From an uncultured Candidatus Saccharibacteria bacterium (GTDB taxonomy: Bacteria > Patescibacteriota > Minisyncoccia > Phycocordibacterales > UBA9973), in NCBI GenBank assembly GCA_964573395.1, contig CAZNJI010000004.1:27379-91378 (forward strand): a stretch of DNA of 64,000 nucleotides, given 5' to 3'. Positions 2,218-38,644 of this stretch are shown one piece after another. Position numbers and translations under genes: made by a program. Every line of letters starts with the position of its first letter. Positions within the stretch are counted from its first letter, which is position 1. The notes under the pieces were generated by a model. It saw nothing but the letters and a program-made list of their open reading frames with translations. It was not told the DNA's origin and did not search any database.

Positions 2218-2334
2218 CTACTATAGTTTATTGACAAACCGGGGGTATTTGCTACGATGGGTAGCAATCGCAGTTTTTGCGTTGTTTTTATTTGCGAAAC
2301 TTTATTATTGTTTAATTAATCTTCATTAAATTTT

Positions 2335-3525
<1,191 letters not shown>

Positions 3526-3550: not shown

Positions 3551-3931
3551 ATGACTGCTGCAACGAAAACAACCAAAGAACCAAAAGCAAAAACTACTAA
3601 GAAAGCTGCTTCAAAATCAGATGTTCCAAGTATCCTTCGCATCCGCGTACGCGCATACGAGAATAAGATTCTTGATGCCAGCACGAAGCAGATTATCGAT
3701 ACCGCACTTCGCTACGATGCAGTGGTGCGCGGACCGATTCCGCTTCCAACTGAAATCAAAAAGTACACTGTGAATCGCTCATCATTCGTGTATAAAAATT
3801 CACGAGAGCAGTTCGAGATGCGGGTACACAAACGTTTGATCGACATTGAAAATCCATCACCGAAGGTGATTGAAGCACTCACTAATCTCTCAATGCCATC
3901 TGGTGTTGATATTGATGTGAAGATGATGTAA
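3551..3931 (+). CDS. rpsJ: 30S ribosomal protein S10 with a Lys/Thr-rich N-terminal extension
   Basis: ILRIRVRAYE...RGPIPLPT...FEMRVHKRLIDI is the S10 core. Confidence 0.9.
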   Translation: MTAATKTTKEPKAKTTKKAASKSDVPSILRIRVRAYENKILDASTKQIIDTALRYDAVVRGPIPLPTEIKKYTVNRSSFVYKNSREQFEMRVHKRLIDIENPSPKVIEALTNLSMPSGVDIDVKMM

Positions 3932-3940
3932 TCAAAACAA

Positions 3941-3970
3941 AAACTCCCCAAAAGGGGAGTTTTTGTTTTC
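3941..3970 (+). terminator. Rho-independent terminator (AAAAACTCCCC-AAAA-GGGGAGTTTTTGTTTT)
   Basis: Hairpin plus T-run after rpsJ. Confidence 0.7.
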
Positions 3971-4008
3971 CCCTTGTTTTTTGGAATAGTGCGCCATACA
4001 ATAGGGGC

Positions 4009-6744
4009 GTGAAAAACAATAGAGTGCTTATCTGGCTCATTGTTTTAGTAAGTATCGGCAGTTTTCTGCCTCCTCTCTTCACGACTCCCGCAAAGGCCGT
4101 TACCTATCTCACCGAAGGGTATCGGCTTGTCTGGTCTGCACCTCCGTTATGGGAAGAAGCGGAGATTATCATCCTTCCCGAATCAACAGCTTTTATACCG
4201 CCTGAATCTGTTACGGGGTTTTTGGATGTATTACCGAGCCACACCGGTTCGTACTCAGGAGAACTTTTCTCTGTTACAGGGGACAGTGCGCGGCAATTTC
4301 TCGGTACCACAAAAGACGATGATGGATTGACGCTTTCGGCTGGTAACTACGAATTAGATATCTATAAAAATAAGCCGGTCTTTCAGGTTCGCCGGGAAAC
4401 GGTACTAGAAAAATTTGCTGCATTACTTATGCCAAGAGCGTATGCGGGAGAAGTATTTGATGATGAATACTATATAGGCACCATCCGCTTTACTATTACC
4501 GACGAACCGGAACCTGCCTGCTGTTCTTCGGTGTTGTTTCTGCCAGGACTGATGGCGTCGCGATTGTATGAAGGAGGGGAAAAGCGGTGGGAACCAACCG
4601 GAGACACTGATATTGAAGAATTATATTTGGATGAACAGGGAAAGAGTTTAAATGAAATAACTGCTACGGAAATTTTGGAAAAATTCGATGGTCCTTTATT
4701 TTTGAACAAAGATATTTACAAATCATTTCTCATTGACCTTGATAGTTTAAAACAGAGCAACACAATCGCTGACTATCAGGCAGTTTCTTACGATTGGCGT
4801 CTTTCACTCTCAGACATTCTTGCAGATGGAAGTATTGAACAAACGCTTCGATCGCTTGCTTCGGAATCAAAATCGGGGAAGGTAACGATCGTTTCCCATT
4901 CAAATGGCGGGTTGCTCGCAAAAGCGCTTATGAACGAACTTGGCCCGGATGCGGCAGACTTGGTTGACCAGATGATTTTTGTTGGAGTCCCTCAGCTTGG
5001 AACGCCGCAGGCAGTTGGAGCATTACTGCATGGGTATGATACTGGTTTGCCAACCAACTTAATACCATTCCTGCTTTCTCCGGAGCGCGCTCGAGATTTT
5101 GCCAAGAACATGCCCGGCGTGTATCAGCTCTTGCCGCAGCCTGACTATTACGAAAATGATGGCGTTTCCATCTATTCTCCGATCATCAGTTTCGAGTCCG
5201 GTGCGGCAACCGAAGCTCTTATCAATGAATATGGAACAACGATTGATACCGGCGAAGAACTCCATAATTTTCTCGTTGGTGCCGAAGGAAGAACGGCCCC
5301 ATTATTTAATGATTTAAAAAATCCTGGCGTTGCAAACAGTACGCTCCTTGAAAATACGAAGTTGCTCGCAGAAGCCGTTGGCTCATCGTGGGAGCCGCCG
5401 GAAGGGGTTGCGGTGCACGAAATTGCCGGCATCGGAGAACCAACGCTCTCTGGCATCACTTACAAAACCGTTCAAAAATGTACTCAGGTAATTCCGATTC
5501 CGCTTTCTGTTTTTCCCGGCTGTGCACAGTATGAGCCAACACTTTCATACGTGCCGAATGAGACCATTGACGGAGATGATACCGTAGTAGTGCCAAGCGC
5601 ACTTTTGATGGAAGAGAGCGGACAGATAAATCGGTGGTGGGTTGATTTAGCTGAACATAATCAATTTTTTAACTTTAAGAAAAATCGAGACCACGCAGAT
5701 CTCCTTGAGATTGATAATCTTCGATCTTTTATACTTGAAAATCTCATTACTAATTCATCTACAATACCTCCTGAGTTTATAGCCAACGAGAAGCCAATTA
5801 TTAGTAAAGGAAAACATCTATCTTTTATACTTCATTCACCGCTTTCTCTTTCTGCGGTTGATAAAAACGGCAATCGTACAGGCGAAGAATTCGATGATAT
5901 CCCTGGTGCTTCGTACAAAAGATATGGCGAGGTACAAGTGCTCCATGTCCCTGCCGATGTCGAGCCAACAATTAATTTAAATGGTATTTCTGATGGATCA
6001 TTCACGCTTGAAATCAAAGAGCTTGATAACGAAGAAATTGTTGCTGTTACTACGTTTTCTGGCATCCCATCCGTTGCGGATACTAAAGCAACAATTTCGT
6101 TTGCCGATGGTACGATTGAAAATGCTGGTGATCTTACGATCGACTATAACGGCGACGGTTCAACCGATATTGCACTCTCACCCGAGCCGGGCGAAGTCGT
6201 TACCCTCCCTGAAGCTTCCCTTGATGCAACGGCACCGGAAGCACGCATCGAGTTTTCAACTACGCTGAACAAAATTGCCATTACCGGATTCGATGAAAGC
6301 TCGGAAACGACGGACGCAACGGCTAAAAATAAAACTACCATTACTGATGCGGCAGGGAATAGTCTTGCGCTTACCCATGCAATCAAAGGGTCAAAAGCAA
6401 CTGCAATCGCAGAAATAAAACAGCTTGCCTACAATACCGCTGATACTATTTTTGCTCCCAAAACAGTGGTACGGTACCATTTCCTTAAACTGCCGAGATT
6501 GGGGCGTTATGCAGCATTTGTTGCCCACATTCGTACGCCTCATGAAAATTTGCTGGCACTCTATCATCCGGCTAAAGACAAGACCATGCTGATAACCATT
6601 CCGAAGCAGCAGGCCGAACCTGACCTTACAAGCATCGCCCTCCTGCAAAAGCCGCCAAAAGGGTCGGCGGTAAAGCAGACGCTTAATGGTTTGGTGATTC
6701 CATTCGTGGAAACGAAACAAGGAAAAATGATTATTAAGTATTAA
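4009..6744 (+). CDS. Secreted alpha/beta-hydrolase, lipase-like (911 aa)
   Basis: GTG start and a signal peptide MKNNRVLIWLIVLVSIGSFLPPLFTTPAKA. Nucleophile elbow VTIVSHSNGGLLA is a GxSxG motif of lipase/LCAT/PGAP1 type. The long C-terminal region has no recognised motif. Confidence 0.55.
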   Translation: MKNNRVLIWLIVLVSIGSFLPPLFTTPAKAVTYLTEGYRLVWSAPPLWEEAEIIILPESTAFIPPESVTGFLDVLPSHTGSYSGELFSVTGDSARQFLGTTKDDDGLTLSAGNYELDIYKNKPVFQVRRETVLEKFAALLMPRAYAGEVFDDEYYIGTIRFTITDEPEPACCSSVLFLPGLMASRLYEGGEKRWEPTGDTDIEELYLDEQGKSLNEITATEILEKFDGPLFLNKDIYKSFLIDLDSLKQSNTIADYQAVSYDWRLSLSDILADGSIEQTLRSLASESKSGKVTIVSHSNGGLLAKALMNELGPDAADLVDQMIFVGVPQLGTPQAVGALLHGYDTGLPTNLIPFLLSPERARDFAKNMPGVYQLLPQPDYYENDGVSIYSPIISFESGAATEALINEYGTTIDTGEELHNFLVGAEGRTAPLFNDLKNPGVANSTLLENTKLLAEAVGSSWEPPEGVAVHEIAGIGEPTLSGITYKTVQKCTQVIPIPLSVFPGCAQYEPTLSYVPNETIDGDDTVVVPSALLMEESGQINRWWVDLAEHNQFFNFKKNRDHADLLEIDNLRSFILENLITNSSTIPPEFIANEKPIISKGKHLSFILHSPLSLSAVDKNGNRTGEEFDDIPGASYKRYGEVQVLHVPADVEPTINLNGISDGSFTLEIKELDNEEIVAVTTFSGIPSVADTKATISFADGTIENAGDLTIDYNGDGSTDIALSPEPGEVVTLPEASLDATAPEARIEFSTTLNKIAITGFDESSETTDATAKNKTTITDAAGNSLALTHAIKGSKATAIAEIKQLAYNTADTIFAPKTVVRYHFLKLPRLGRYAAFVAHIRTPHENLLALYHPAKDKTMLITIPKQQAEPDLTSIALLQKPPKGSAVKQTLNGLVIPFVETKQGKMIIKY

Positions 6745-6754
6745 AATAAAAGGT

Positions 6755-7186
6755 ATGGAATTTTTGAAAAGAAAAAATGTTTTTATTACTTCTTTAATTT
6801 TGGTTGCACTATTTGTGTTGCTTGGTCTTATAATGAGATCTAGTCAGTGTAAACTAGATTCGGTATGTAGTTCTTTATATTGGAGTGAATTTTGGAGCGA
6901 AAAACTTCCAACTATTCTATTTGTTTTAATAATCTCAATTTTTCCTTTCTCTACCCTTACTCTTTTTGCTCCAAATAATGCCTTTGATCGCTGGAAACGA
7001 TTTGCAGTATGGGCAGTTCCTATTCTGGCCTTGCTTACATTACCTATCATAAAAGCGCTTTCTGGTGATTGGCTTGATGTTGCAACTCCAACTCTTGTCT
7101 TTCTCTACGGCATTTATTTTATTATTTCTCTTGCCATTATCATCCGCGCATGGAGAAAGGAACGAAAGCTAAAAAATAATCCTTAG
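6755..7186 (+). CDS. Hypothetical polytopic membrane protein (143 aa)
   Basis: Three to four hydrophobic helices and a good RBS (AAAAGG). Confidence 0.5.
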   Translation: MEFLKRKNVFITSLILVALFVLLGLIMRSSQCKLDSVCSSLYWSEFWSEKLPTILFVLIISIFPFSTLTLFAPNNAFDRWKRFAVWAVPILALLTLPIIKALSGDWLDVATPTLVFLYGIYFIISLAIIIRAWRKERKLKNNP

Positions 7187-7200
7187 ATGGTAGTTGGATC

Positions 7201-7226
7201 AAAAATCCCCGAAAGGGGATTTTTTG
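7201..7226 (+). terminator. Rho-independent terminator (AAAAATCCCC-GAAA-GGGGATTTTTT), near-identical to the hairpin at 184-213
   Basis: Hairpin plus T-run, followed directly by TTGACA at 7228-7233. Confidence 0.7.
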
Positions 7227-7290
7227 CTTGACAACAATATAAAAGTCAGTAAAGTCTCTGAGAACAATTTTCTTAACCAAATTTAAACCC

Positions 7291-7467
7291 ATGGTTCGTT
7301 GGACGCTTATTTTCCTTATTATTGCCATTATTTCGGCAATATTCGGATTCGGCGGTATTGCAGCAGGAGCTGCAGGAATCGCCAAAGTTCTATTTTTCAT
7401 ATTCCTGGTTCTGTTCATACTCTCGCTCTTCGTCGGGGGCAGATCATCGCCGGATTATGAGGAATGA
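7291..7467 (+). CDS. DUF1328 (UPF0391/YtjA-like) small membrane protein, 58 aa; absent from the ORF track because it is under 60 aa
   Basis: Translation [58 protein letters not shown] matches the DUF1328 signature. Confidence 0.6.
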
Positions 7468-7522
7468 CCTCCAGATTATTGTCGCCAATTCTTGCATGAG
7501 AATTGGCTTTTTCTGTTAAAAC

Positions 7523-7550
7523 TTGCGCGCTTTTAAAACCCGTGTATAAT
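7523..7550 (+). promoter_or_regulatory. Candidate promoter for the rplC segment (TTGCGC, 16 bp, TATAAT)
   Basis: -35-like 7523-7528 and perfect TATAAT at 7545-7550. Confidence 0.4.
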
Positions 7551-7559
7551 CCTCCTACC

Positions 7560-7600
7560 AACCCGGTAGTAGATCTTATTGGCATAAGCTCACTACCGGG
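7560..7600 (+). promoter_or_regulatory. 5' leader stem-loop upstream of rplC (CCCGGTAGT ... ACTACCGGG)
   Basis: 9-bp perfect inverted repeat in the predicted 5' UTR. It shares the motif CCCGGTAGTAG with the rpsS leader. Confidence 0.4.
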
Positions 7601-7670
7601 CAGTTAAATACTCTTTAAATGGTCCAATACCCAGCCGTAATTTCAAATTTACAGCTCGGCAAGAACATTC

Positions 7671-8273
7671 ATGAAATTCATTGTAGGAACAAAATCACAT
7701 ATGACCCAGCTGTTCAACGATAACGGAACGGTTATTCCAGTTACCGTGGTAAAAGCGGGTCCAATTACCGTTACCAAGGTAAAAACGGCCGATTCAGACG
7801 GCTACAGCGCCGTGCAGGTTGGTTTCGGAGACCAGAAAGAGTCTCGATCGAACAAGCCTACCCTTGGTTCTTTGGGCGGCAAGGCATACCAATTAGTGCA
7901 AGAATTCCGGGTGGATAATCCAACCGTTGCGGCAGGAGATACCATTGATGCGTCTGTTTTCTCTGAAGGAGACACCGTAACCGTTACTGGCACCTCAAAA
8001 TCAAAAGGGTTCCAGGGGGTAGTGAAGCGCCATGGGTTTGCTGGCGGTCCGCGCACGCACGGCCAGAAACACTCAGAGCGAGAACCAGGATCCATCGGCG
8101 GCGGACTTCGAACGCGCGTGCCAAAAGGAATGCGCATGGCAGGCCGCACTGGCGGGGATACGATAACGGTAAAACACCTTTCAATTGTTGCGGTTGATGC
8201 CGAAAAAGGAGAGCTCTACATTAAGGGGGCAGTGCCTGGTCGACGAGGAACATTTGTTAGCATTGTCGGATAA
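7671..8273 (+). CDS. rplC: 50S ribosomal protein L3
   Basis: MKFIVGTKSHMTQLFNDNGTVIPVTVV... is a typical L3 N-terminus. Confidence 0.95.
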   Translation: MKFIVGTKSHMTQLFNDNGTVIPVTVVKAGPITVTKVKTADSDGYSAVQVGFGDQKESRSNKPTLGSLGGKAYQLVQEFRVDNPTVAAGDTIDASVFSEGDTVTVTGTSKSKGFQGVVKRHGFAGGPRTHGQKHSEREPGSIGGGLRTRVPKGMRMAGRTGGDTITVKHLSIVAVDAEKGELYIKGAVPGRRGTFVSIVG

Positions 8274-8278
8274 ACTAT

Positions 8279-8989
8279 ATGGCTACAGCAAAAACTACAA
8301 CTAAAAAAGAGGCAGCAAAAGAGCAGAAAAATCTTGAAGCAGTGCTCTATACCCAAGTGGGAAAAGAATCAGGCTCTATTACGCTTCCTGAATCAGTATT
8401 CGGTTTGAAATGGAATGCTGACTTGGTGCACCAAGTTGCAACCAGCATGATGGCAAATGCTCGCGCAGGAACGGCGCACACCAAAGACAGAAGCGATGTT
8501 TCTGGCGGCGGCAAAAAGCCATGGAAACAGAAGGGAACCGGCCGCGCTCGCCACGGCTCGACGCGCAGCCCAATTTGGGTTGGCGGAGGAGTAACGTTCG
8601 GCCCTCGATCCGATAAGGATTACTCGAAGAAAATCAACAAGAAGATGCGCGCAAAAGCACTCTTCACCGTACTGTCGAAGAAATTCAATAATAGCGAATT
8701 GCTGTTTGTCGACAAGCTCTCTCTTGATGCGGTAAAAACAAAAGAAGCGCAACAGGTACTTGAGAACCTTGCAAAGATCAAAGGATTTGAAAAATTGAAC
8801 ACCAAAAAGAAAACCGGATCATTCGTAGTGCTTCCGGAAAAGAATGAAGCCGTCGAGAAATCATTTAGAAACATTCCAGGCGTTACTGTGGGAACGGTGC
8901 AAGACTTAAATGTTGTTTCAGCGCTTCATTTCAAATCGCTCGTTTTTGTCGGAAACGCAGCAGGCGCGCTTGAAGCAAAGCTAAAGTAA
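8279..8989 (+). CDS. rplD: 50S ribosomal protein L4
   Basis: KPWKQKGTGRARHGSTRSPIWVGGGVTFGPR motif. Confidence 0.95.
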   Translation: MATAKTTTKKEAAKEQKNLEAVLYTQVGKESGSITLPESVFGLKWNADLVHQVATSMMANARAGTAHTKDRSDVSGGGKKPWKQKGTGRARHGSTRSPIWVGGGVTFGPRSDKDYSKKINKKMRAKALFTVLSKKFNNSELLFVDKLSLDAVKTKEAQQVLENLAKIKGFEKLNTKKKTGSFVVLPEKNEAVEKSFRNIPGVTVGTVQDLNVVSALHFKSLVFVGNAAGALEAKLK

Positions 8990-9003
8990 CCGAGTAAGAT
9001 TGT

Positions 9004-9315
9004 ATGGCACGAACGAAAACAACAGAATCAAAGCAGGTAACCGCGCAGCATGGCATTTTGAAGCACCCGCGCATTACCGAAAAAGCGGCAACCGTTACGT
9101 CGTTTAACGTTTATGTATTCGACATCCTTCCTACCGTTACCAAAAGCGAAGTGGCGAAAGCGTTTTTCGCACAGTACGACATTAAGCCGGTAAAGGTGAA
9201 TGTGGTAAATAATAAGCAGAAAGCTGTGTATCGCCGCGGAGTCCTTGGATTTAAAGCTGGCATTAAAAAAGCATATGTCTATCTGCCGAAAGGAAAGACA
9301 ATTGATATCGTATAA
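9004..9315 (+). CDS. rplW: 50S ribosomal protein L23
   Basis: PRITEKA...FDI... L23 fold; operon position. Confidence 0.9.
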   Translation: MARTKTTESKQVTAQHGILKHPRITEKAATVTSFNVYVFDILPTVTKSEVAKAFFAQYDIKPVKVNVVNNKQKAVYRRGVLGFKAGIKKAYVYLPKGKTIDIV

Positions 9316-9323
9316 AACCAAGT

Positions 9324-10175
9324 ATGAAAAAGCATAAACCAACAACTCAATCTCGCCGCGCAACCATTACGCTTGAATATCGCAAGCTGCTTTCTCGCAC
9401 CACGCCGGAGAAGAAACTCACCAAAGGGGTAAAGCGCTCAGTTGGCCGAAACAACCAGGGCCGCATTACGACGCGGCACAAGGGAGGCGGAAACAAGCGC
9501 CTGTACCGTGCGGTAGATTTTGTATACGACAAGAAAAATATTCCGGCAAAGCTTTCTTCCATTGAGTACGATCCAAATCGCAGCGCATTCATCGGCGTAG
9601 CGGTATACCAAGACGGAGAAAAGCGCTATACAATCGTGCCAAAGTCGATGAAAGTTGGAGACAAATTCCAAGTGTCTGAAACAGCGCCAATTGCCCCAGG
9701 AAACCGTTTGCCGCTAAAGAACATTCCGGTTGGTACGTTTATTTTTAACATTGAACTGAAGCCAGGAAGCGGTGCAAAAATGGTTCGCTCTGCAGGAACC
9801 TTCGCGCAACTCGTAGCGCTCTCTGACGGCTACGCGCAGCTCAAGATGCCATCAACTGAAATTCGAAAAGTGATGGATGATTGTTGGGCAACTGTAGGTG
9901 AAGTGTCAAACGATGAGCACAAGCTCGTTTCCTACGGAAAAGCAGGGCGCTCTCGATGGAAGGGAATTCGCCCAACAGTGCGCGGTACTGCCATGAACCC
10001 GGTTGATCACCCATACGGTGGAGGTGAAGGACGACAGGGGCGCGGTACGAAGCGACCAAAGACCATGTGGGGTAAGATTACCGGCGGCCGCAAGACCCGC
10101 ACGCCGAAGAAATACTCGAACGACCTTATCGTCTCTCGACGCCGAGTCGGCAAGAATCGAAAGTCTGCAAGTTAG
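9324..10175 (+). CDS. rplB: 50S ribosomal protein L2
   Basis: GRNNQGRITTRHKGGG...GTAMNPVDHPYGGGEG motifs. Confidence 0.97.
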   Translation: MKKHKPTTQSRRATITLEYRKLLSRTTPEKKLTKGVKRSVGRNNQGRITTRHKGGGNKRLYRAVDFVYDKKNIPAKLSSIEYDPNRSAFIGVAVYQDGEKRYTIVPKSMKVGDKFQVSETAPIAPGNRLPLKNIPVGTFIFNIELKPGSGAKMVRSAGTFAQLVALSDGYAQLKMPSTEIRKVMDDCWATVGEVSNDEHKLVSYGKAGRSRWKGIRPTVRGTAMNPVDHPYGGGEGRQGRGTKRPKTMWGKITGGRKTRTPKKYSNDLIVSRRRVGKNRKSAS

Positions 10176-10182
10176 TTTTCAA

Positions 10183-10210
10183 AAACTCCCGTACGGGGAG
10201 TTTTTGCTAT
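10183..10210 (+). terminator. Rho-independent terminator (AAAAACTCCC-GTAC-GGGGAGTTTTTGC)
   Basis: Hairpin plus T-run after rplB. Confidence 0.7.
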
Positions 10211-10220
10211 ACTTTCCACC

Positions 10221-10625
10221 ATGGAATCTTCGCATCAGTCTTCGAAAAAGCAGTTCTCTGTTACTGCTCGGGCAAACAGCTTAAAGCATGCCCTGCGGGG
10301 AATCAGGCTCTTTTTCAAAACCCAGCACAATGCCTGGATCCAGCTTGCGATTGCCATTGTTGCGCTTTTTGCCGGCTTTTTCTTTTCTATTACCAAAGCG
10401 GAATGGATTGCGGTCATTTTTGCCATTATCATCGTTTTCATAGCCGAAGCTTTCAATACTGCCATCGAAATAGACATTAATTTAACGAGCCCTGAGTATC
10501 ACCCCTATGCCAAAGATACTAAGGATGTGGCAGCCGGAGCGGTACTCCTTGCCGTAGCAGGGGCTGGAATCATCGGAATTGTCGTCTTTTTGCCCTATAT
10601 AAAAGATTTTTTGTTGCCCAAGTAG
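10221..10625 (+). CDS. dgkA: Diacylglycerol/undecaprenol kinase family membrane protein
   Basis: LKHALRGI...IQLAIAIVALFAGF...AEWIAVIFAIIIVFIAEAFNTAIE...AKDTKDVAAGAVLLA are DgkA hallmarks, and there are three TM helices. Confidence 0.75.
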   Translation: MESSHQSSKKQFSVTARANSLKHALRGIRLFFKTQHNAWIQLAIAIVALFAGFFFSITKAEWIAVIFAIIIVFIAEAFNTAIEIDINLTSPEYHPYAKDTKDVAAGAVLLAVAGAGIIGIVVFLPYIKDFLLPK

Positions 10626-10645
10626 TAGAGCTTATTTTCCTTATC

Positions 10646-10915
10646 ATGTTCTACATTTACAGCCTTCAAAGTAAAAATCATCCTCGCCAGTTTTATTTTG
10701 GTTTTACTCGAGATTTGAAGAAAAGGGTTGTAGAACATAATAAGGGTTTAAATATTTCAACGAAACGATACAAACCATGGGAGCTTATTTATTACGAAGC
10801 TTGCCTGTCTGAAATAGACGCAAAACGTAGGGAAAAATATTTAAAAACAACTGTGGGACGCCGAATGTTTAAAAAACGCATACGAGATTACCTGTTAATT
10901 ACCACTAAGAATTGA
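10646..10915 (+). CDS. Stand-alone GIY-YIG nuclease-domain protein (89 aa)
   Basis: YIYSLQS...YFGFTRDLKKRVVEHNKG...PWELIYYE...REKYLK is a GIY-YIG/URI-domain signature. It is paralogous to the gene at 32018-32281. Confidence 0.75.
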   Translation: MFYIYSLQSKNHPRQFYFGFTRDLKKRVVEHNKGLNISTKRYKPWELIYYEACLSEIDAKRREKYLKTTVGRRMFKKRIRDYLLITTKN

Positions 10916-10919
10916 GCTC

Positions 10920-11045
10920 ACTACTGGGCTAACCCGGTAGTAGAAACTGGCAGGCTTAGGATAGATAAAATACCTAAAAAGCCTTGCCAGTTCTTACTAT
11001 CCGGGTTGACTTCTTTGGCTAATTTGCTACTATAGCCGGTACGGC
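10920..11045 (+). repeat. Structured intergenic leader with repeated CCCGGTAGTAG / CTACTA(N)CCGG motifs and small hairpins
   Basis: Hairpin CTACTGGG-CTAA-CCCGGTAG at 10922-10941; imperfect inverted repeat AACTGGCAGGCTT/AAGCCTTGCCAGTT; direct copies of CTACTATCCGGG at 10995 and CTACTATAGCCGG at 11027. Confidence 0.5.
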
Positions 11046-11069
11046 CTAGAAGGGCTTGTTTTATTTGCA

Positions 11070-11420
11070 ATGACACGATCACTTTCAAAGGGTCCTTACG
11101 TTGACCCGAAACTCCTCAAAAAGATAGAAGGAAAGAACCCGCTTCAGAGCGGGGTGATTAAGACATGGTCGCGCGATTCTCAAATCGCGCCTGAAATGGT
11201 TGGGTTTACCTTCGGCGTGCACAACGGCCGCCAGCACATTGAAGTGCTCGTGAGCGAAGACATGGTCGGCCACCGATTGGGTGAATTTTCTCCAACCCGC
11301 AAATTTACCCGCCACGGCGGTAAGATGCAGAAGGAGCTCGATCAGAAGAAGAAAGAAGCAGAAATCGCTGCAGCAAAGACCGCTAAGGCTGCAACTACCG
11401 ATGCTGCCGCAAAGAAATAA
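11070..11420 (+). CDS. rpsS: 30S ribosomal protein S19 with a Lys/Ala-rich C-terminal tail
   Basis: [11 protein letters not shown]...[11 protein letters not shown]...[13 protein letters not shown] motifs. Confidence 0.95.
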
Positions 11421-11447
11421 TAAAACAACCCCTACGCTACTAATTTT

Positions 11448-11861
11448 ATGAAAGCATCACTCAAAAATTATCGACAGTCTCCGCGAAAGGTTCGCCTGGT
11501 TGCAGGAGCGGTAAAAGGAAAGAGCGTTACCCACGCTGATGCGGTGCTCTCATACATGCCAAAGCGTGGCGCGCTTCCGATGCAGAAACTGATTCAGTCA
11601 GCGGTTGCCAACGCCGAGCTGCAGGGCGCAAAGCGGGAAGATTTAATCGTAAAAAATATTGAAGTGAACAAAGGGCTGGTGATGAAGCGATTCATGCCAC
11701 GAGCATTCGGTCGAGGAGCGCCCATCATGAAGCGCACTAGCCACGTTGCGGTTGAGCTTGCTGAAAAGCCAGTAAAGAAGGCTAAAAAAGCTCAGAGTGA
11801 GACTAAATCAGCGCGAAACGCTGATCGTCCGGCCATCAAAGATGGTTTAGGAAATAAGTAA
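11448..11861 (+). CDS. rplV: 50S ribosomal protein L22
   Basis: SPRKVRLVAGAVKGKSV...A L22 motifs. Confidence 0.93.
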   Translation: MKASLKNYRQSPRKVRLVAGAVKGKSVTHADAVLSYMPKRGALPMQKLIQSAVANAELQGAKREDLIVKNIEVNKGLVMKRFMPRAFGRGAPIMKRTSHVAVELAEKPVKKAKKAQSETKSARNADRPAIKDGLGNK

Positions 11862-11862
11862 T

Positions 11863-12534
11863 ATGTCTAAAGTAGTACATCCATACGCACATCGTCTTGT
11901 CATCCTTCGCGACTGGAAAAGCCGCTGGTTTGCGACGAATAAAAATTACGTTGCGCAGCTGAAAGCTGACGTAACCATGCGTGAATTTTTGGAAGAACGC
12001 CTTCGCGGATTTTACGTTTCTTCAATAGAAATCGAGCGCGGCCAGAAATCGGTTCGGCTTATTATCCGTACCTCGCGCCCTGGCATGATTATCGGCCGCA
12101 GCGGCGAAGGAGCAACGAAGCTCCGTGCCGATCTCTTTAAGATGCTCGGCCGAAAGAAAATCGTGCTCGACGGCGAACTGAAGATCGAAATCGTGGAAGT
12201 GCCGCAGCCTGAAGCTGATGCAAAAATCGTCTCCTACATGATTGCCGAAGGGCTCGAGAAGCGCATGCCGTTTCGCCGAGTATTAAAACAGCTCATCGAA
12301 AAGGTGATGCAGATTCGCGGCGTGGAAGGAGCCCGCTTCGTCATCGGCGGCCGGCTCGGCGGCGCTGAAATCGCTCGAACCGAACAGATTAAGCGCGGCT
12401 CCATTCCGCTCCAAACCTTCCGTGCAGACGTCGATTTCGCTCGAGAGCGAGCGCACCTTCCGTACGGCGATATCGGCATTAAGGTGTGGATCTACAAGGG
12501 CGAGGTCTTCAATAAGGAAGAAAAGAAAAAATAA
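11863..12534 (+). CDS. rpsC: 30S ribosomal protein S3
   Basis: KH and S3-C domains (GRSGEGATKLRADL..., RAHLPYGDIGIKVWIY). Confidence 0.95.
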   Translation: MSKVVHPYAHRLVILRDWKSRWFATNKNYVAQLKADVTMREFLEERLRGFYVSSIEIERGQKSVRLIIRTSRPGMIIGRSGEGATKLRADLFKMLGRKKIVLDGELKIEIVEVPQPEADAKIVSYMIAEGLEKRMPFRRVLKQLIEKVMQIRGVEGARFVIGGRLGGAEIARTEQIKRGSIPLQTFRADVDFARERAHLPYGDIGIKVWIYKGEVFNKEEKKK

Positions 12535-12540
12535 AAAGCC

Positions 12541-12957
12541 ATGTTATTCCCGAAGAAAGTAAAATTTAGAAAGTGGCAGAAATTCCGACAGAATCCTGCA
12601 AAAGTAAAAGTCGAAACGCGCGGCACGACGCTCTCTTTCGGCTCATACGGGCTGAAAGCTGAAACTGATGCCCGCATTACCTCAAACCAGCTTGAAGCGG
12701 CTCGAAAGGCAATGTCTCGAAAACTCACGAAGGTCGGCCGCGTTTGGACCCGAGTATTTCCCGACATGCCGTTCACGACGAAAGCGGCAGAAGTGCCGAT
12801 GGGAGGCGGAAAAGGCGATCTGCAGGGATACTGCACTCAAGTTTATCCAGGGCGCATCATTTTTGAAGTTGATGGCGTTAATGAAGAGACCGCTCGAGAA
12901 GCGCTCCGAAAGGCCGGAACAAAATTGCCAATAAAAACTAGAATCATTGTCCGCTAA
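12541..12957 (+). CDS. rplP: 50S ribosomal protein L16
   Basis: MLFPKKVKFRKWQK... typical L16 start. Confidence 0.95.
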   Translation: MLFPKKVKFRKWQKFRQNPAKVKVETRGTTLSFGSYGLKAETDARITSNQLEAARKAMSRKLTKVGRVWTRVFPDMPFTTKAAEVPMGGGKGDLQGYCTQVYPGRIIFEVDGVNEETAREALRKAGTKLPIKTRIIVR

Positions 12958-12974
12958 ACGCGAAGTTTTTTACC

Positions 12975-13172
12975 ATGAAGCGAGTTGATACCAAAGGAAA
13001 AGACAAGGCAACCATTGAGAAGGAAGTGCTGGCATTGCGCACGAAACTTCGAGATTTGGCATTCAAAGCGGCCGGTGCCCGAGCTGACAACGTGAAAGAA
13101 CGCCGCCAGGCGAAAAAAGACATCGCACGGCTCTTAACTGCGCTTCGCGCATTGAGCGCTACGGCTGAGTAG
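12975..13172 (+). CDS. rpmC: 50S ribosomal protein L29
   Basis: 65 aa, LRTKLRDLAFK helix, operon position. Confidence 0.85.
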   Translation: MKRVDTKGKDKATIEKEVLALRTKLRDLAFKAAGARADNVKERRQAKKDIARLLTALRALSATAE

Positions 13173-13216
13173 ACAAGCCCCAGAAAATAAGTATTATTGG
13201 AACTTCACCTATACTC

Positions 13217-13459
13217 ATGACGAAATCAACAAGCCACAAAAGAACATTGAAAGGGACGGTAGTCTCAGACAAGATGGAAAAAACCATCGTGGTTTCCGTA
13301 ACGCGCTTCGTCAAGCATCCAAAGTATAAAAAGTACATGAAGATTACGAAGAAGTACAAAGCGCACGATGAGGGAAATGCGGCTCAGGTTGGCGAAATTG
13401 TTACCATTCGCGAGACGAAACCGCTCTCGAAAGATAAACATTTTGAACTCGTAAAATAG
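13217..13459 (+). CDS. rpsQ: 30S ribosomal protein S17
   Basis: LKGTVVSDKMEKTIVV...VGEIVTIRETKPLSK motifs. Confidence 0.93.
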   Translation: MTKSTSHKRTLKGTVVSDKMEKTIVVSVTRFVKHPKYKKYMKITKKYKAHDEGNAAQVGEIVTIRETKPLSKDKHFELVK

Positions 13460-13463
13460 GCTT

Positions 13464-13835
13464 ATGTTGCAGGACGGATCAATCGTAAAAATTACAGATA
13501 ACGCCGGAGGAAGGATTGGAAAAATCTTTAAGATCCTCGGCGGCTCAAAGAAGCGATACGCAAGCATCGGCGATGTCGTGGTGCTTTCAATCAAAACGGC
13601 AGAACCGCGCAAGCTCGTGAAGAAAAAAGACGTGTGCTATGCGGTGGTCGTTCGCCAGAAGAATGCATTCCGCCGCAAAGATGGCTCATACATTCGATTC
13701 GATGATAATGCGGTCGTGATCCTTGAGAAAGGAAAGCAGGAACCGCGCGCCGGACGCGTGTTCGGTCCGATCCCTCGAGAGCTTGCCGAGCTTGGTTACC
13801 AGAAAATTATTTCGCTCGCACCTGAAGTCTTATAA
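13464..13835 (+). CDS. rplN: 50S ribosomal protein L14
   Basis: MLQDGSIVKITDNAGGR..., 123 aa. Confidence 0.95.
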   Translation: MLQDGSIVKITDNAGGRIGKIFKILGGSKKRYASIGDVVVLSIKTAEPRKLVKKKDVCYAVVVRQKNAFRRKDGSYIRFDDNAVVILEKGKQEPRAGRVFGPIPRELAELGYQKIISLAPEVL

Positions 13836-13866
13836 ATCAAGGAGCAAGGCGACTATGATTTATTGA

Positions 13867-13967
13867 CCCCGCCCTAATTTATTGATTAGAGAACGATGGT
13901 GTGATAAGGTAGGCGAGGCAAAAATTTTTATGCAAGCAGTTAATGTAATGAATAAATTAGGGCGGGG
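13867..13967. repeat. Perfect 17-bp inverted repeat (CCCCGCCCTAATTTATT ... AATAAATTAGGGCGGGG) with a 67-bp loop between rplN and rplX
   Basis: Arms at 13867-13883 and 13951-13967 are exact reverse complements. Confidence 0.85.
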
Positions 13968-14013
13968 TAGCGATTTTTATACTCGCGTTACTCGTTAAAA
14001 ATCAGCCATACGT

Positions 14014-14316
14014 ATGAAACTTAGAAAAGGAGACAACATCATCGTGATAGCCGGCAAAGACAAAGGCACTAAGGCAAGCATTAAAAAAGTGCTTCCTTCA
14101 GGACGCTTGGTGGTTGACGGCGTTGCAAAAATAAAGCGGCACCAGAAATCTCGCCGCCGGAATGAATCAGGGCAGATTATCGAGCGGGAATCGTCAATCC
14201 ACAGCTCGAACGTGTTGCTCGTTGATGCAAAATCAGGAAAGGGAACCCGCGTCGGCAAGAAGCTGGTGGGAGAAAAATGGGTTCGCGTTGCCAAAAAGAG
14301 CGGCGAACAGGTATAG
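14014..14316 (+). CDS. rplX: 50S ribosomal protein L24
   Basis: MKLRKGDNIIVIAGKDKG is a KOW motif. Confidence 0.93.
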   Translation: MKLRKGDNIIVIAGKDKGTKASIKKVLPSGRLVVDGVAKIKRHQKSRRRNESGQIIERESSIHSSNVLLVDAKSGKGTRVGKKLVGEKWVRVAKKSGEQV

Positions 14317-14328
14317 TGAGTTACTATC

Positions 14329-14865
14329 ATGCAATTAACGAAGGAAAAAGAACAATCATCATTTCAGGCGCTCGCTGAGTTTGGATACAAAAACAAGCTT
14401 GCTTCTCCGCGCCTCACTAAAATCGTCGTATCCGTTGGTACCGGTTCAGCGATGAAAAAGGCAAATGACAAAAACGAAAAGATAGCTGAGCGCCTGGCGA
14501 AAATTACCGGCCAGAAGCCGGCATTGCGCGCCGCAAAGAAATCAGTGGCAAGCTTCAAAATTCGCCAAGGAGACCCGGTCGGGCTCATGGTAACGCTCCG
14601 CGGCGCTCGGATGTACCACTTCCTCGACAAGCTCATTCATATTGCGTTTCCGCGCACCAAAGACTTCCGCGGGCTTGATGCAAAGGCGGTTGATTCAATG
14701 GGGAACCTCACTATCGGCATCAAGGAACATACTATTTTTCCGGAGACGGCCGATGAAGACCTCCGCGACGTGTTCAGCCTTGCCATTACGCTCGTCTCTA
14801 CCGCAAAGAGCAAAGAAGCAGCGACTGCATTTTTCGCTCACCTTGGCATTCCTTTCAAGAAATAA
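14329..14865 (+). CDS. rplE: 50S ribosomal protein L5
   Basis: L5 motifs (RLTKIVVSVGTG, NLTIGIKEHTIFPE). Confidence 0.93.
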   Translation: MQLTKEKEQSSFQALAEFGYKNKLASPRLTKIVVSVGTGSAMKKANDKNEKIAERLAKITGQKPALRAAKKSVASFKIRQGDPVGLMVTLRGARMYHFLDKLIHIAFPRTKDFRGLDAKAVDSMGNLTIGIKEHTIFPETADEDLRDVFSLAITLVSTAKSKEAATAFFAHLGIPFKK

Positions 14866-14880
14866 CTGCTTTTCTTGACA

Positions 14881-14914
14881 TCAGCCACCGTCTTCATCTG
14901 AAGACGGTGGCTGA
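14881..14914 (+). other. Perfect 15-bp stem-loop (TCAGCCACCGTCTTC-ATCT-GAAGACGGTGGCTGA) with no U-tract
   Basis: Seen directly. Preceded by TTGACA at 14875-14880. Confidence 0.7.
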
Positions 14915-14958
14915 TTGACTTTTCAGGGGGAGAACATACGATGTTTTAAAAGTAACAT

Positions 14959-15594
14959 ATGAATATAGATGCCCTAACGGTTGTTTGCCTACTGTTTTTT
15001 CTGATCATACTCTGGCAAGGCATGCGCATACGGCGACAGGGAAGCCTGCTTCGATCCTTCTACAAGAGCAGTATGCATCATTCGCTTAAATGCGAAAAGG
15101 AAACGCTGACCTATCGAAAAGTTATCGATTTGTGGAGCAATTCTCCCGAGTTCCTTGCAAGCCGGCGCACGCTTCTTGGCGTGCTCAGGTCCCTCTTTCG
15201 ATACATCACTTTTGCCCTTTTTGGAAAAAAGCTAGGATCGAAAGAGAAATGGGCATTCGATACAAAGGCGGAGTTCATGAGCCTGGCGACCTTGCCGCTT
15301 ATCTTGCGCATAAATGCGATTCAGTCTTACCATCTACTCCAGCTCTTTTTCAGCGGCTATGAAAAATCTTCTCCCAAGGTAATCCATGCTATCCATTTGC
15401 GGGTGGTGCATGCTACGGCAGGGCACGTTGCTGTCCTTCTGGTAAAGGAATTAGAGGCGCAAGAAAAGCGCATGCGAGAAAAACCCGAGGGTAGATTTGT
15501 CGAACAGTTCATCAGGATGGTTCAGTATACTCCTGCATTTAAGCCTTATTTGGAGCATCCAGTAGTGATCCAAGCATTGCAACCGTTTTCGTAA
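14959..15594 (+). CDS. Hypothetical protein (211 aa) inserted between rplE and rpsN
   Basis: Clean ORF with an N-terminal hydrophobic segment and its own terminator; no motif recognised. Confidence 0.45.
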   Translation: MNIDALTVVCLLFFLIILWQGMRIRRQGSLLRSFYKSSMHHSLKCEKETLTYRKVIDLWSNSPEFLASRRTLLGVLRSLFRYITFALFGKKLGSKEKWAFDTKAEFMSLATLPLILRINAIQSYHLLQLFFSGYEKSSPKVIHAIHLRVVHATAGHVAVLLVKELEAQEKRMREKPEGRFVEQFIRMVQYTPAFKPYLEHPVVIQALQPFS

Positions 15595-15595
15595 A

Positions 15596-15632
15596 GACTC
15601 CCTGAAAACTCAGAAGGGAGTCTTTTTCTTTC
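15596..15632 (+). terminator. Rho-independent terminator (GACTCCCTGA-AAACTC-AGAAGGGAGTC + TTTTTCTTTC)
   Basis: Hairpin plus T-run. Confidence 0.65.
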
Positions 15633-15787
15633 TTGACCAAAAGGGTCTATTCTGGTAGGATTGCCTGACTCCTCTTTCGAATCCGTTTTCCTCTCTTTGA
15701 TCCCGCCTTGGTCCCACCATACAAGGAATTAAAGAAAGTTACACGCGATATTCTTAGGGGAAAAGAGGTTTTATTATTTTTTTTATT

Positions 15788-15973
15788 ATGGCTAAAACAT
15801 CAACAGTTGTCCGATCTCAAAAGAAACCGAAGTACAGCACTCGGGCGGTAAACCGCTGTTTCCGCTGCACTCGCCGCCATGGCTACATGCGCGACTTCGG
15901 CCTCTGCCGCATTTGTTTCAGAGAGCTCGCAAACGAGGGACAAATTCCAGGTGTTCGCAAGTCTTCTTGGTAA
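15788..15973 (+). CDS. rpsN: 30S ribosomal protein S14, zinc-binding type Z
   Basis: 61 aa with [23 protein letters not shown] (CxxC...CxxC). Confidence 0.92.
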
Positions 15974-15974
15974 T

Positions 15975-16364
15975 ATGGACGGAATCGCAAACATGCTCAT
16001 CAGCATAAAGAACGGCAGCCTCGTCTCAAAAGAGACAGTCGTGGTTCCGTTTTCAAACATGAAGCTTGCAATCGCTGAATGCTTGAAAATAAACGGCTTT
16101 GTCGGCAGTGTGTCGAAGAAAACCGAGAAGAACAACGTTCCGGTGCTTGCAATCGAGCTGCTCTACGGAGATGCCGGTTCGAAGATCCACGACGTAAAGC
16201 GGATCTCAAAGCCGTCTCGCCGGATGTATTCTGGCGTAAAGGATCTTCGCCCGTTTAAAAACGGACACGGCATGTACGTGCTCTCAACGCCGAAGGGAAT
16301 TTTGAGCGACAAGCAGGCGAAGAAAGAACAGGTCGGCGGAGAGTTACTTTTTTCAATTTGGTAA
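15975..16364 (+). CDS. rpsH: 30S ribosomal protein S8
   Basis: MDGIANMLISIKNG is the S8 N-terminus. ATG at 15975 is in frame with ORF 15879..16364 and avoids overlap with rpsN. Confidence 0.9.
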   Translation: MDGIANMLISIKNGSLVSKETVVVPFSNMKLAIAECLKINGFVGSVSKKTEKNNVPVLAIELLYGDAGSKIHDVKRISKPSRRMYSGVKDLRPFKNGHGMYVLSTPKGILSDKQAKKEQVGGELLFSIW

Positions 16365-27370: not shown

Positions 27371-27412
27371 GGAATCCGCGCGGGCTTTCTGATTTTTTGG
27401 CGAGTTTGACAA
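27371..27412. repeat. Left copy of a perfect 42-bp inverted repeat (GGAATCCGCGCGGGCTTTCTGATTTTTTGGCGAGTTTGACAA) bounding the copper cassette
   Basis: Exact reverse complement of 31425-31466. Contains the 3' arm of a terminator-like hairpin (TCCGCGCGGA 27344-27353 / TCCGCGCGGG 27375-27384), a T-run, and a TTGACA -35 box. Confidence 0.9.
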
Positions 27413-30018: not shown

Positions 30019-31026
30019 ATGAAATCATACACATTCCACGTTTCCGGTACTCATTGTGCATCATGCAAAATATTCATTGAAGACACTCTTAATGAACAGA
30101 TTGGTATTGAGCGTACTCATGTTGATTTGAAAAGTGAAACTGTCTCGATTGACACTACCCTTGAAGAGAGCCAGCACAAACTCGCAGAAATATTGACTGA
30201 AAAAATAAAGCACAACGGCTATTCTCTGTCCGTCGAGAAGAAGGTTAAAGAAAAACAGAACGGTGATGTGATTTGGAAAGCATTGCCAATTGGAATTGGT
30301 TTTCTTGTTTTGTTTTTCTTACTACAGAAGTCAGGAATCCTTAATCTTGGAATTGGCGGACAAACTACACCAGTTACAAGTTTTATTATTGGTCTCATAG
30401 CGTCAGTGTCCAGCTGTCTTGCCATCGTGGGAGGTTTGGTTTTATCTCTCTCCGCTAAGATATCACAGGACAACGTGAGCGATACAAAGACGTTCGTGCT
30501 TTTTCACGCAGGAAGGCTTGTAAGCTTTGCGGCCCTGGGTGGTGTTCTTGGGGCGGTTGGCAGTGCAATCGGCATTAACTTTACGCTTACCTCAATACTG
30601 GGGCTTTTGGCATCGGTGGTAATGCTGTTACTCGGTCTGAACTTGGTCGGAGTGTTTGAAAAAAATAAAGTTGCGCTACCTTCAGGACTATTCAATTTTT
30701 TTAGGAGAATCGAGCATAAGACATTCACCCCTCTTGTTCTTGGTTTTGCTACATTTTTCTTGCCGTGTGGCTTTACACAGTCGATGCAGGTTTCTGCACT
30801 GGGAAGCGGATCGTTTATGTCCGGACTTTTTATCATGCTTGCATTCGCACTTGGAACACTGCCAATGCTCGTGCTTCTTTCATTCGGTTCGGCCTCGTTT
30901 GCCCACGGGAAGCACGCTCCATTGTTTTTTAAGTCAGCAGGAATAGTGGTGATCGGACTCGGACTGTTTGCGTTTCTCGCTGGACTTGCCGGGCTCGGAA
31001 TTATTAACCCACTATTTAACATTTAA
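30019..31026 (+). CDS. HMA-domain membrane protein with a DsbD/CcdA-like transmembrane thiol domain
   Basis: N-terminal GTHCASC metal-binding fold; six or more TM helices with membrane-embedded Cys (SSCLA, FLPCGF). Confidence 0.6.
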   Translation: MKSYTFHVSGTHCASCKIFIEDTLNEQIGIERTHVDLKSETVSIDTTLEESQHKLAEILTEKIKHNGYSLSVEKKVKEKQNGDVIWKALPIGIGFLVLFFLLQKSGILNLGIGGQTTPVTSFIIGLIASVSSCLAIVGGLVLSLSAKISQDNVSDTKTFVLFHAGRLVSFAALGGVLGAVGSAIGINFTLTSILGLLASVVMLLLGLNLVGVFEKNKVALPSGLFNFFRRIEHKTFTPLVLGFATFFLPCGFTQSMQVSALGSGSFMSGLFIMLAFALGTLPMLVLLSFGSASFAHGKHAPLFFKSAGIVVIGLGLFAFLAGLAGLGIINPLFNI

Positions 31027-31424: not shown

Positions 31425-31466
31425 TGTCAAACTCGCCAAAAAATCAGAAAGCCCGCGCGGATTCCC
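31425..31466. repeat. Right copy of the perfect 42-bp inverted repeat bounding the copper cassette
   Basis: Exact reverse complement of 27371-27412; lies 93 bp from the tmRNA 3' end. Confidence 0.9.
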
Positions 31467-38576: not shown

Positions 38577-38644
38577 ATATAAAGTAAAACATGAAGTTGT
38601 GAATTATTCCAACCTTGGCTAGAATCAGTGTCAGTTCTTTCGAT

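Follow-up and report, generated by a model that had tools for sequence, protein, structure and literature searches.

In the canonical bacterial S10 operon, rpsJ, rplC, rplD, rplW, rplB, rpsS and the genes that follow form one unit. The standard markers by which uncultured bacteria are placed are sixteen syntenic ribosomal genes of this cluster, usually treated as one block. In cyanobacteria, plastids and archaea the S10 gene is attached to the str/tuf unit rather than to the L3 gene. Gene insertion at the operon borders of this cluster has been described as a mode of its evolution in Gammaproteobacteria and Bacilli (PMC8046335; PMC6735719), and E. coli L4 binds the S10 leader, as S8 does the spc site (Fu et al., 2013, PMC3616713). 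Here we analyse a stretch of 64,000 nucleotides (the window; contig CAZNJI010000004.1) from an uncultured bacterium belonging to the candidate phyla radiation (CPR), in which the adjacency of rpsJ and rplC is broken. The two genes are separated by an interval (3932-7670 in the coordinates of the whole window, which are used throughout) that holds a gene for a 911-aa hydrolase, one for a 143-aa membrane protein and one for a DUF1328 protein, together with three terminator-like hairpins and two promoter-like sites, unlike the canonical S10 operon. We hold it to be fairly probable that the cluster consists here of separately promoted units, that the break between rpsJ and rplC is ancestral, and that the cargo now lying in it, including a lipase/partner module, is specific to this lineage.

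The original prediction had described the interval as an insertion into the S10 operon, and the features that it named (the rpsJ terminator, the three genes, a promoter before rplC and a leader) were all found at the positions given in Table 1; the three genes are indeed extra relative to the usual S10-L3 adjacency. A total of 155 related loci was compared with the window. The genome sample was drawn from an S10 scan with one genome per species (80 loci, almost all labelled Paceibacteria, Parcubacteria, Nomurabacteria or generic CPR); it excludes the window's own genome, and its best S10 identity is 92%. A second, independent sample consisted of 80 metagenome loci found with L3, with identities of at most 64% and no closer relatives. 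Twenty cluster genes were placed in each locus of the genome sample by tblastn and every spacer was measured. Against the 3739 nt of the window, the gap between rpsJ and rplC has a median of 70 nt in the genome sample (75 loci) and of 87 nt in the metagenome sample (60 loci).

The age of the break can be told apart from that of its contents in the 12 closest relatives (EF-Tu identity 84-90%), whose gaps at this junction range from 153 to 2620 nt. A terminator-like hairpin follows rpsJ in all 12, and the rplC promoter, (C)TTGC(G/A)C followed after 16 nt by TGTATAAT, is kept nearly base for base in every one of them, whatever the length of the gap. A two-hairpin leader with a UGGUCCA motif is present in 11, the twelfth (locus L005) having a variant of it. 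At two loci, L006 and L008, the gap of 153-154 nt consists of terminator, promoter and leader without genes, and the remaining relatives have one to four genes between the terminator and the promoter. Those recognised by Pfam are PemK/MazF (three genomes), HicB, DUF4258 with DUF2283, ParE, haemolysin III (HlyIII) and pilin-like genes; most other cargo genes in these gaps have no Pfam family. More distant relatives in which rpsJ abuts rplC have neither the promoter nor the leader motif. Since the 12 nearest relatives have this break, with terminator, promoter and leader, down to a gap length of 153 nt, it appears older than the insertion, and we read the operon break as ancestral in the subclade and the cargo as specific to the window lineage.

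According to this reading, an ancestor of the subclade would first have separated rplC from rpsJ transcriptionally, and the space between terminator and promoter would thereafter have taken different genes in different species. DNA lying between a terminator and the next promoter would leave the expression of the ribosomal proteins undisturbed, so that such boundaries may tolerate and accumulate genes. This two-step history is the most economical reading of the comparison. A gene order in which the three genes had stood at this junction ever since the clade arose, to be lost in the other members, is extremely improbable: it would agree with a break that is itself ancestral in the subclade, but none of the 155 related loci has the LCAT-like hydrolase gene, its partner or the DUF1328 gene at this junction, and the gaps of the closest relatives are either empty or filled with unrelated genes. 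The prediction of an insertion, as opposed to an ancient and fixed arrangement, is thus borne out by synteny.

Another reading is a chimeric contig, in which 3.7 kb from another population had been joined into the cluster during metagenome assembly. The assembly is of an uncultured organism, and the composition of the gene for the 143-aa membrane protein is deviant. However, both flanks of the cargo carry signals specific to the lineage (the rpsJ terminator on one side, the rplC promoter and leader on the other), the same proteins stand together on one NCBI contig of 91.8 kb, and relatives independently have 0.6-5.8 kb of cargo between rpsJ and rplC. An artefact would need two precise chimeric joins in intergenic DNA, and we regard it as very unlikely.

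The fragmentation is not confined to this junction. Among the genome loci the gap between rpsJ and rplC exceeds 500 nt in 14 of 75 (maximum 5830 nt), and it does so in 8 of the 12 closest relatives. The rplB/rpsS gap has a median of 991 nt and exceeds 500 nt in 38 of 53 genome loci (maximum 6444 nt), and the rplE/rpsN gap, with a median of 238 nt, does so in 13 of 29 (maximum 3619 nt). Four further junctions have one or two loci above this length, among them tuf/rpsJ and rplC/rplD with two each and rplX/rplE with one, and the remaining true spacers never exceed it (rpsN/rplF, which spans rpsH, is not a true spacer). The pattern in the metagenome loci is the same (4/60, 16/41 and 9/22 for rpsJ/rplC, rplB/rpsS and rplE/rpsN, respectively); in the most distant of them, with an L3 identity below about 52%, rplB/rpsS and rplE/rpsN are tight. 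The three junctions broken in the window are the three that vary in the class; fragmentation is a property of the lineage and not a peculiarity of this genome. The S10-spc string of this Paceibacteria lineage thus seems, on the sequence comparison, to be a chain of the units tuf-rpsJ, rplC-rplB, rpsS-rplN(-rplX-rplE) and rpsN-secY. As an event the insertion is real but unexceptional, and typical of the group.

The original prediction had called fragmentation on this scale unusual, which does not hold within the clade, where the same three junctions are repeatedly expanded. The further interruptions that it listed are real (dgkA, a GIY-YIG gene, an inverted repeat and a 211-aa open reading frame (ORF); Table 1), but dgkA follows rplB in 19 related loci and is therefore an old arrangement, not a private insertion. 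It stands first among the rplB/rpsS cargo of the relatives, followed by pyrimidine-synthesis genes, sensor kinases, HicA and many single families. The GIY-YIG gene is private to the window genome, with one distant tblastn match in L132. At the rplE/rpsN junction the relatives have pilin-like genes (three), a deaminase, an rve transposase, PemK and a sigma factor; the 211-aa ORF of the window has no family and no homologue in the relatives' gaps. A Y1 transposase gene sits in the rplB/rpsS bay of one relative (L043, 6421-7092). The inverted repeat between rplN and rplX, a spacer with a median of 18 nt in relatives, has 23-nt arms that are 96% complementary and a 57-nt spacer, and there is no other copy of it in the window or in 172 loci.

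Units downstream of the breaks have their own conserved promoters and leaders. The leader before rplC, which had been predicted to be structured, proved to be conserved in relatives as well. In its first hairpin, P1, the 3' strand is formed by the conserved AAAUGGUCC (UGGUCCA at 7620-7626), and in the relatives that have the leader by the invariant (A)AUGGUCC; the second, P2 (7630-7659), differs widely in sequence between species. A GAACA motif (7663-7667), a few bases before the rplC ATG, is again invariant. The fold of the window leader has a z-score of -2.8, and the two-hairpin architecture is found in 12 sequences. When four pairs at the base of P2 were counted from two conserved anchors, 41 of 48 cells could pair (as CG, UA or GU), compared with 8-22 in slid registers. 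RNAalifold on a MAFFT alignment gave no consensus and no P2 pairs, because MAFFT cannot register hairpins of different length. Support for the proposed structure of the rplC leader is accordingly moderate. Rfam gave no match at gathering thresholds in the window and no relevant match with E<=5 in 3900-16000; weak matches at 3931-4032 were rejected, being the terminator hairpin. A 39-nt hairpin (7562-7600; CCCGGTAGTAG...CTACCGGG) is nested in P1 of the window, and none of the 11 relatives that share the leader has it. Both the 11-mer CCCGGTAGTAG and its partner are found again in the longer palindrome just upstream of the rpsS promoter (10916-11005); the hairpin is possibly a small repeat element of palindromic type.

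Of the leaders, that of rpsN has the best support. It lies between the promoter TTGACC-17-TGGTAGGAT and rpsN (15633-15787) and is found in at least 26 Paceibacteria loci, where two helices of 9 bp each flank an internal loop whose UCUC and AAAA strands are conserved. Compensatory changes occur at 15 of its 18 pairs, 93.6% of cells are paired as opposed to 35-57% in slid registers, and its covariation score of 0.68 compares with 0.18 or less when the registers are slid. No Rfam family matches it, and it is a candidate ribosomal-protein leader, perhaps for S8 or S14. The rpsS and tuf genes share a design, kept in many relatives, in which a short GC hairpin with a U-run comes after a conserved promoter and immediately precedes the start codon (11006-11069 and 2231-2334, respectively); the same arrangement stands before rpsN in some genomes. 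This hairpin could be an attenuator or a stabilising 5' hairpin.

With regard to the cargo itself, the 911-aa protein scores as an LCAT-type alpha/beta hydrolase by profile, catalytic triad and fold, as had been suspected from its sequence. The Pfam LCAT profile (PF02450) matches residues 257-530 with 49.3 bits against a cut-off of 21 (E 5.8e-13), and in an alignment of the window protein with 64 homologues (65 sequences) H297, S298, G300, G522, D523 and H562 are invariant. The predicted GTG start and lipase-type elbow stand, as does a putative signal peptide, although the elbow is not literally GxSxG: it reads SHSNGG in the window and AHSNGG in the family consensus. An (A/G/S)HSxG elbow is the usual form for LCAT-type enzymes. 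Asp523 lies in GDGTV (G-D-x-T-V), and a second conserved block of the family covers residues 596-720. An AlphaFold model (pLDDT 85, pTM 0.73) has an N-terminal signal or anchor helix (5-19), a low-confidence region (20-79), a confidently modelled core at about 170-590 and beta-sandwich C-terminal domains (600-911). The predicted fold of the core has the LCAT-type additions and is also similar to Tle4. Only the N-terminal segment is hydrophobic enough to span the membrane, and an AKA-V site near residue 29 is, by eye, a typical signal-peptidase site. PDB sequence searches gave no significant match to LCAT, lysosomal phospholipase A2 (LPLA2) or any solved structure, which leaves the Pfam profile and the fold as the sole signs of the relation. 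Profile, catalytic residues and modelled fold together support assignment of the hydrolase to the LCAT/LPLA2 family as a predicted exported serine hydrolase. More than 1000 homologues were found; the named ones belong to Kaiserbacteria, Zambryskibacteria, Moranbacteria, Yonathbacteria and other Parcubacteria.

The hydrolase gene does not stand alone. The gene for the 143-aa protein follows it after 10 nt and the two have a common terminator, which argues that they form one unit. The smaller product is a four-helix membrane protein in which Cys32, Cys38 and Ser125 are invariant and the motif F-x-x-W-K-x-F-A-x-W-A-V-P is kept. In all nine other readable contexts of the hydrolase gene (L001, L002, L085, L086, L088, L170, L171, L172 and one without DNA; L086 and L172 have much the same neighbours and are not fully independent) the next gene is on the same strand, overlaps or nearly touches it, and encodes 132-147 residues without a Pfam match. 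With the 143-aa protein as query, a word-index homology search recovered nothing but the query, and a full HMMER scan found 98 representative homologues, almost all of 135-150 aa, from which a profile was built that matches all eight downstream proteins (E 8e-37 to 8e-8). This constant association identifies hydrolase and four-helix partner as one conserved two-gene module, widespread in Parcubacteria. The three genes had been predicted to be unrelated and to have a terminator and promoter each; this describes the DUF1328 gene, and fails for the first two, which are a conserved pair with one terminator. The bay in the window thus appears, from its sequence signals, to hold two independent units, the hydrolase/partner module and the DUF1328 gene with its own promoter and terminator. 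PF07043 and PRK13682 cover the full length of the DUF1328 (UPF0391/YtjA-like) protein, which has two hydrophobic helices.

It is conceivable, although we think it rather unlikely, that the module, perhaps with the DUF1328 gene, was gained recently by horizontal transfer on a mobile or integrating element that has lost its mobility genes. The composition is mixed in this respect: the partner gene has the third-lowest GC of the 63 ORFs of the window (GC 0.34; GC3 0.25, z -3.1), and the hydrolase gene likewise lies under the average, but with a GC3 of 0.405 (z -1.2) it is within 1.2 standard deviations of the window mean, and the DUF1328 gene is about average. The bays of relatives hold typical mobile cargo such as toxin-antitoxin pairs and, in the one case given above, an rve transposase; yet in 3932-7670 Pfam, NCBIfam and PADLOC scans of all ORFs found no transposase, integrase or recombinase, PADLOC had no defence-system match for the cargo genes, and there is no tRNA (the nearest is at 38.6 kb) and no flanking direct or inverted repeat apart from the terminator hairpins. 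Two of these hairpins bracket the module and match at 23 of 26 positions (repeat family D8), and the one at 7201-7226 also resembles the rpsJ terminator of L008. The same style recurs at 189, 2193 and 10181 as the ordinary terminator design of this genome, and because it is found at these three other places in the first 10 kb we do not read the bracketing hairpins as a footprint. A Y1 transposase of the IS200/IS605 type lies within two genes of the module in three of the five contexts first examined, but tblastn with the Y1 transposases of other contexts found none in the whole window. The genes in question (PF01797; L002 14605-15279, L085 2924-3616, L088 8382-9020) are a lead, not evidence for the window locus. 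The cargo may have arrived by relocation within the genome or by transfer from another Parcubacterium.

The position of the module directly behind rpsJ could also have been selected, with partial read-through from rpsJ coupling a lipid-harvesting enzyme to transcription that is very strong and growth-rate-controlled. There is no convincing promoter before the hydrolase gene, which begins 39 nt past the rpsJ terminator; homologous modules stand directly upstream of rplJ-rplL in two other genomes (L001 14339-15365 and L085 7307-8553); and dgkA, another lipid gene, is kept after rplB. However, the rpsJ hairpin is the strongest terminator-like structure of the region, the cargo between rpsJ and rplC in relatives is functionally unrelated, and in 6 of the 9 other contexts the module is not beside ribosomal genes (in L002 it is 6 kb away). 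A preference of the module for ribosomal neighbourhoods was rejected as a rule, only 3 of 10 contexts having them, and we consider selection for co-expression unlikely.

Whatever its route, the module may serve in lipid salvage. CPR bacteria lack complete lipid synthesis, are rich in lysolipids and have been proposed to take up lipids from other cells, and phospholipase A has been named as a route to lysolipids (PMC7242380). The predicted exported hydrolase would most likely attack foreign (host) membranes from the cell surface, in the capacity of a phospholipase A or an acyltransferase, freeing fatty acids or lysolipids for an organism unable to make its own lipids, and the membrane partner would protect or anchor the enzyme in a manner resembling effector and immunity protein. 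LCAT/LPLA2-type enzymes remove or transfer an acyl chain from phospholipid at the membrane surface. The invariably adjacent small membrane partner, taken with the resemblance to Tle4, would fit an effector/immunity-like or an enzyme/anchor relation, and the stable position of dgkA (diacylglycerol kinase) after rplB fits an importance of lipid salvage. Lipids of the host membrane would thus be the probable target that the hydrolase attacks or harvests, and the partner would be its immunity or anchor protein. A broader reading joins these strands: the three fixed S10-spc breaks would be cargo bays throughout the Paceibacteria, each unit would be controlled by a leader RNA of its own, as yet undescribed (the candidates being the UGGUCCA leader of rplC and the rpsN leader, present in at least 26 genomes and absent from Rfam), and hydrolase and partner would be a Sec-dependent, lipid-harvesting pair of effector/immunity type. 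We advance this combination tentatively, as the less probable one.

Several observations weigh against the favoured reading of separately promoted units, an ancestral break and lineage-specific cargo. The promoters and terminators discussed here are consensus matches or are deduced from conservation, and the consensus promoter scan as a whole found about as many sites as expected by chance (24 against 20.5). It found no promoter before the 911-aa gene, where only a weak TTGTTT-17-TACAAT can be seen by eye; the hydrolase gene, having no clear promoter, may depend on read-through from rpsJ, which would make the picture of an insulated bay incomplete. The GC3 values of partner and hydrolase (0.25 and 0.405) are not explained by a single joint history of the two genes. 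The relatives compared are species-level representatives with an EF-Tu identity of at most 90%, by which the age of the insertion is bounded, not dated. Finally, the proposed activity, substrate and partner role are drawn only from the predicted fold and gene order, and although the partner gene is the adjacent small gene in every context (9/9), its product has no similarity to the known immunity families.

The features of the locus are collected in Table 1. Gene calls were taken from the ORF list and Pfam scans, with further scans against NCBIfam, PADLOC and Rfam; neither PADLOC nor NCBIfam had a match to the hydrolase, its partner, the GIY-YIG protein or the 211-aa ORF. The rplC promoter is not in the list of the consensus scan, being visible in the sequence and kept in the 12 relatives.

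Table 1. Coordinates of the features in and around the rpsJ-rplC interval and the two other cargo bays.
Feature	Position	Strand	Basis or remark
Promoter-like site upstream of tuf	2231-2258		Consensus scan; promoter and leader hairpin kept in relatives
tuf	2335-3525	+	Pfam
rpsJ	3551-3931	+	PF00338, E 6e-32; 25-nt spacer after tuf
Terminator-like hairpin of the tuf-rpsJ unit	3934-3969	+	16-bp stem between A-tract and T-tract; terminator scan
Possible weak promoter, TTGTTT-17-TACAAT	3974-4002	+	By eye; uncertain, absent from consensus scan
911-aa hydrolase gene, GTG start	4009-6744	+	PF02450 LCAT
143-aa membrane protein gene	6755-7186	+	No Pfam; four hydrophobic segments
Terminator-like hairpin after the hydrolase/partner pair	7201-7226	+	Seen in sequence; repeat family D8
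Promoter-like site before the DUF1328 gene, TTGACA-16-TAAAGT	7228-7255	+	Consensus scan, 10/12 matches
DUF1328 gene, 58 aa	7291-7467	+	PF07043, E 1.5e-14; NCBIfam PRK13682; hydropathy
Terminator-like hairpin and T-run after DUF1328	7484-7517 (hairpin 7484-7507)	+	Consensus scan
rplC promoter: TTGCGC (7523-7528), 16-nt spacer, TG and TATAAT (7543-7550)	7523-7550	+	Conservation
rplC leader, 120 nt	7551-7670	+	Fold and relatives
rplC	7671-8273	+	TIGR03625, 219 bits
rplC-rplD-rplW-rplB unit	7671-10175	+	Terminator at 10180-10206 (terminator scan)
Second cargo bay	10221-11069	+	dgkA, GIY-YIG, palindrome, rpsS promoter, short hairpin and U-run leader
dgkA	10221-10625	+	
GIY-YIG gene	10646-10915	+	
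Palindrome	10916-11005		
rpsS promoter	11006-11033		Consensus scan
rpsS, rplV, rpsC, rplP, rpmC, rpsQ, rplN	up to 13835		
Inverted repeat	13866-13968		Between rplN and rplX
rplX, rplE	to 14865		
Third cargo bay	14880-15787	+	
rplE terminator	14880-14915		Terminator scan
Promoter in third bay	14915-14942		Consensus scan
211-aa ORF	14959-15594		
rpsN promoter	15633-15661		Consensus scan
rpsN leader, structured core	15680-15752		
rpsN, rpsH, rplF, rplR, rpsE, rplO, secY, adk			After the 211-aa ORF, in this order

There is no L30 gene between rpsE and rplO in the window, an absence that is, to our knowledge, typical of CPR bacteria. Both the hydrolase gene (GTG at 4009) and dgkA (ATG at 10221) have a hexamer like a -10 element, TACAAT and TATACT, respectively, whose end is 6 nt from the start codon, and the two transcripts may be leaderless (3997-4011 and 10209-10223). 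Elsewhere in the window, beside the tmRNA gene (31560-31944), two genes stand between perfect inverted repeats of 41 nt (27371-27411 and 31425-31465, 4013 nt apart), each with a TTGACA: one for a copper-type P-type ATPase (27721-30015) and one that is HMA-DsbD-like (30019-31026); the segment could be an invertible or mobile metal-resistance segment, or the repeats could be duplicated divergent promoters. Other genes of strongly low GC are those of an M3 oligopeptidase (32767-34539; GC 0.35, z -2.9) and of a 165-aa ORF without a family (48362-48859; GC 0.32, z -3.5), the latter just upstream of the gene for a 1912-aa repeat-rich surface protein with a CshA repeat and a Peptidase_S74 chaperone domain (48997-54735). 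A second repeat-rich surface protein, of 1409 aa, has DUF4082, Big_7 and a peptidoglycan-binding domain (38695-42924). ARAGORN placed a tRNA-Ile with the anticodon TAT (UAU) at 38644-38721, an uncommon way of reading AUA in bacteria.

Nothing in these results overturns established ideas. That the block of marker genes is broken at three fixed junctions in a whole class of CPR bacteria matters for binning, for the extraction of markers and for the reading of gene neighbourhoods, and the junctions are a natural experiment on where genes fit into an essential, highly expressed cluster. The conserved leaders, especially that before rpsN, are the newest part of the work and are candidates for ribosomal-protein feedback regulators; we know of none in this lineage. 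The module is a candidate for the acquisition of fatty acids or lysolipids by lipid-auxotrophic CPR bacteria (PMC7242380). This hydrolase/partner pair and the undescribed rplC and rpsN leaders are most worth following up. In the literature we found no paper on interruption of the S10 operon in CPR bacteria or on LCAT-like enzymes in them.

The components of the locus can be set beside several known systems. The DUF1328 protein is a typical member of the DUF1328/UPF0391 family with nothing distinctive. The hydrolase has 16-18% identity to LCAT and LPLA2 (PLA2G15), and unlike these it is bacterial and predicted to be Sec-exported, with about 140 extra N-terminal residues and a C-terminal beta-sandwich region of about 310 residues, and is always paired with a small membrane protein. 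The pairing recalls the lipase effector and immunity protein Tle4-Tli4 of the type VI secretion system (PDB 4r1d), but no genes of that system are nearby: VgrG, Hcp and PAAR are absent among the neighbours in the window (tuf, rpsJ, DUF1328, rplC) and in the nine other contexts, and export would be by the N-terminal signal. The partner, in contrast to Tli4, is a membrane protein of four helices; no relation to known immunity proteins could be detected for it, and its immunity function is put forward as a hypothesis. Like the regulated ribosomal-protein operons, the window has structured 5' leaders before the first genes of units (rplC, rpsN), although these are unrelated in sequence and structure to the E. 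coli leaders as far as we can tell, and have no Rfam match. The proximity of rpsJ to tuf resembles the attachment of the S10 gene to the str/tuf unit: the two genes are 25 nt apart, a terminator comes after rpsJ, and rplC starts a new unit. However, rpsL, rpsG and fusA are not upstream of tuf in the window, and the likeness to cyanobacteria, plastids and archaea would be convergent. A further parallel is with the insertions described at operon boundaries (PMC8046335; PMC6735719), in which, as in the window, a few unrelated genes are inserted in a lineage-specific manner, often without a sign of distant transfer. However, the window is broken at S10/L3, L2/S19 and L5/S14, which lie inside operons in E. 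coli and Bacillus, and throughout a whole CPR class insertions repeatedly fall at these three boundaries, with downstream units that have conserved promoters and leaders of their own.

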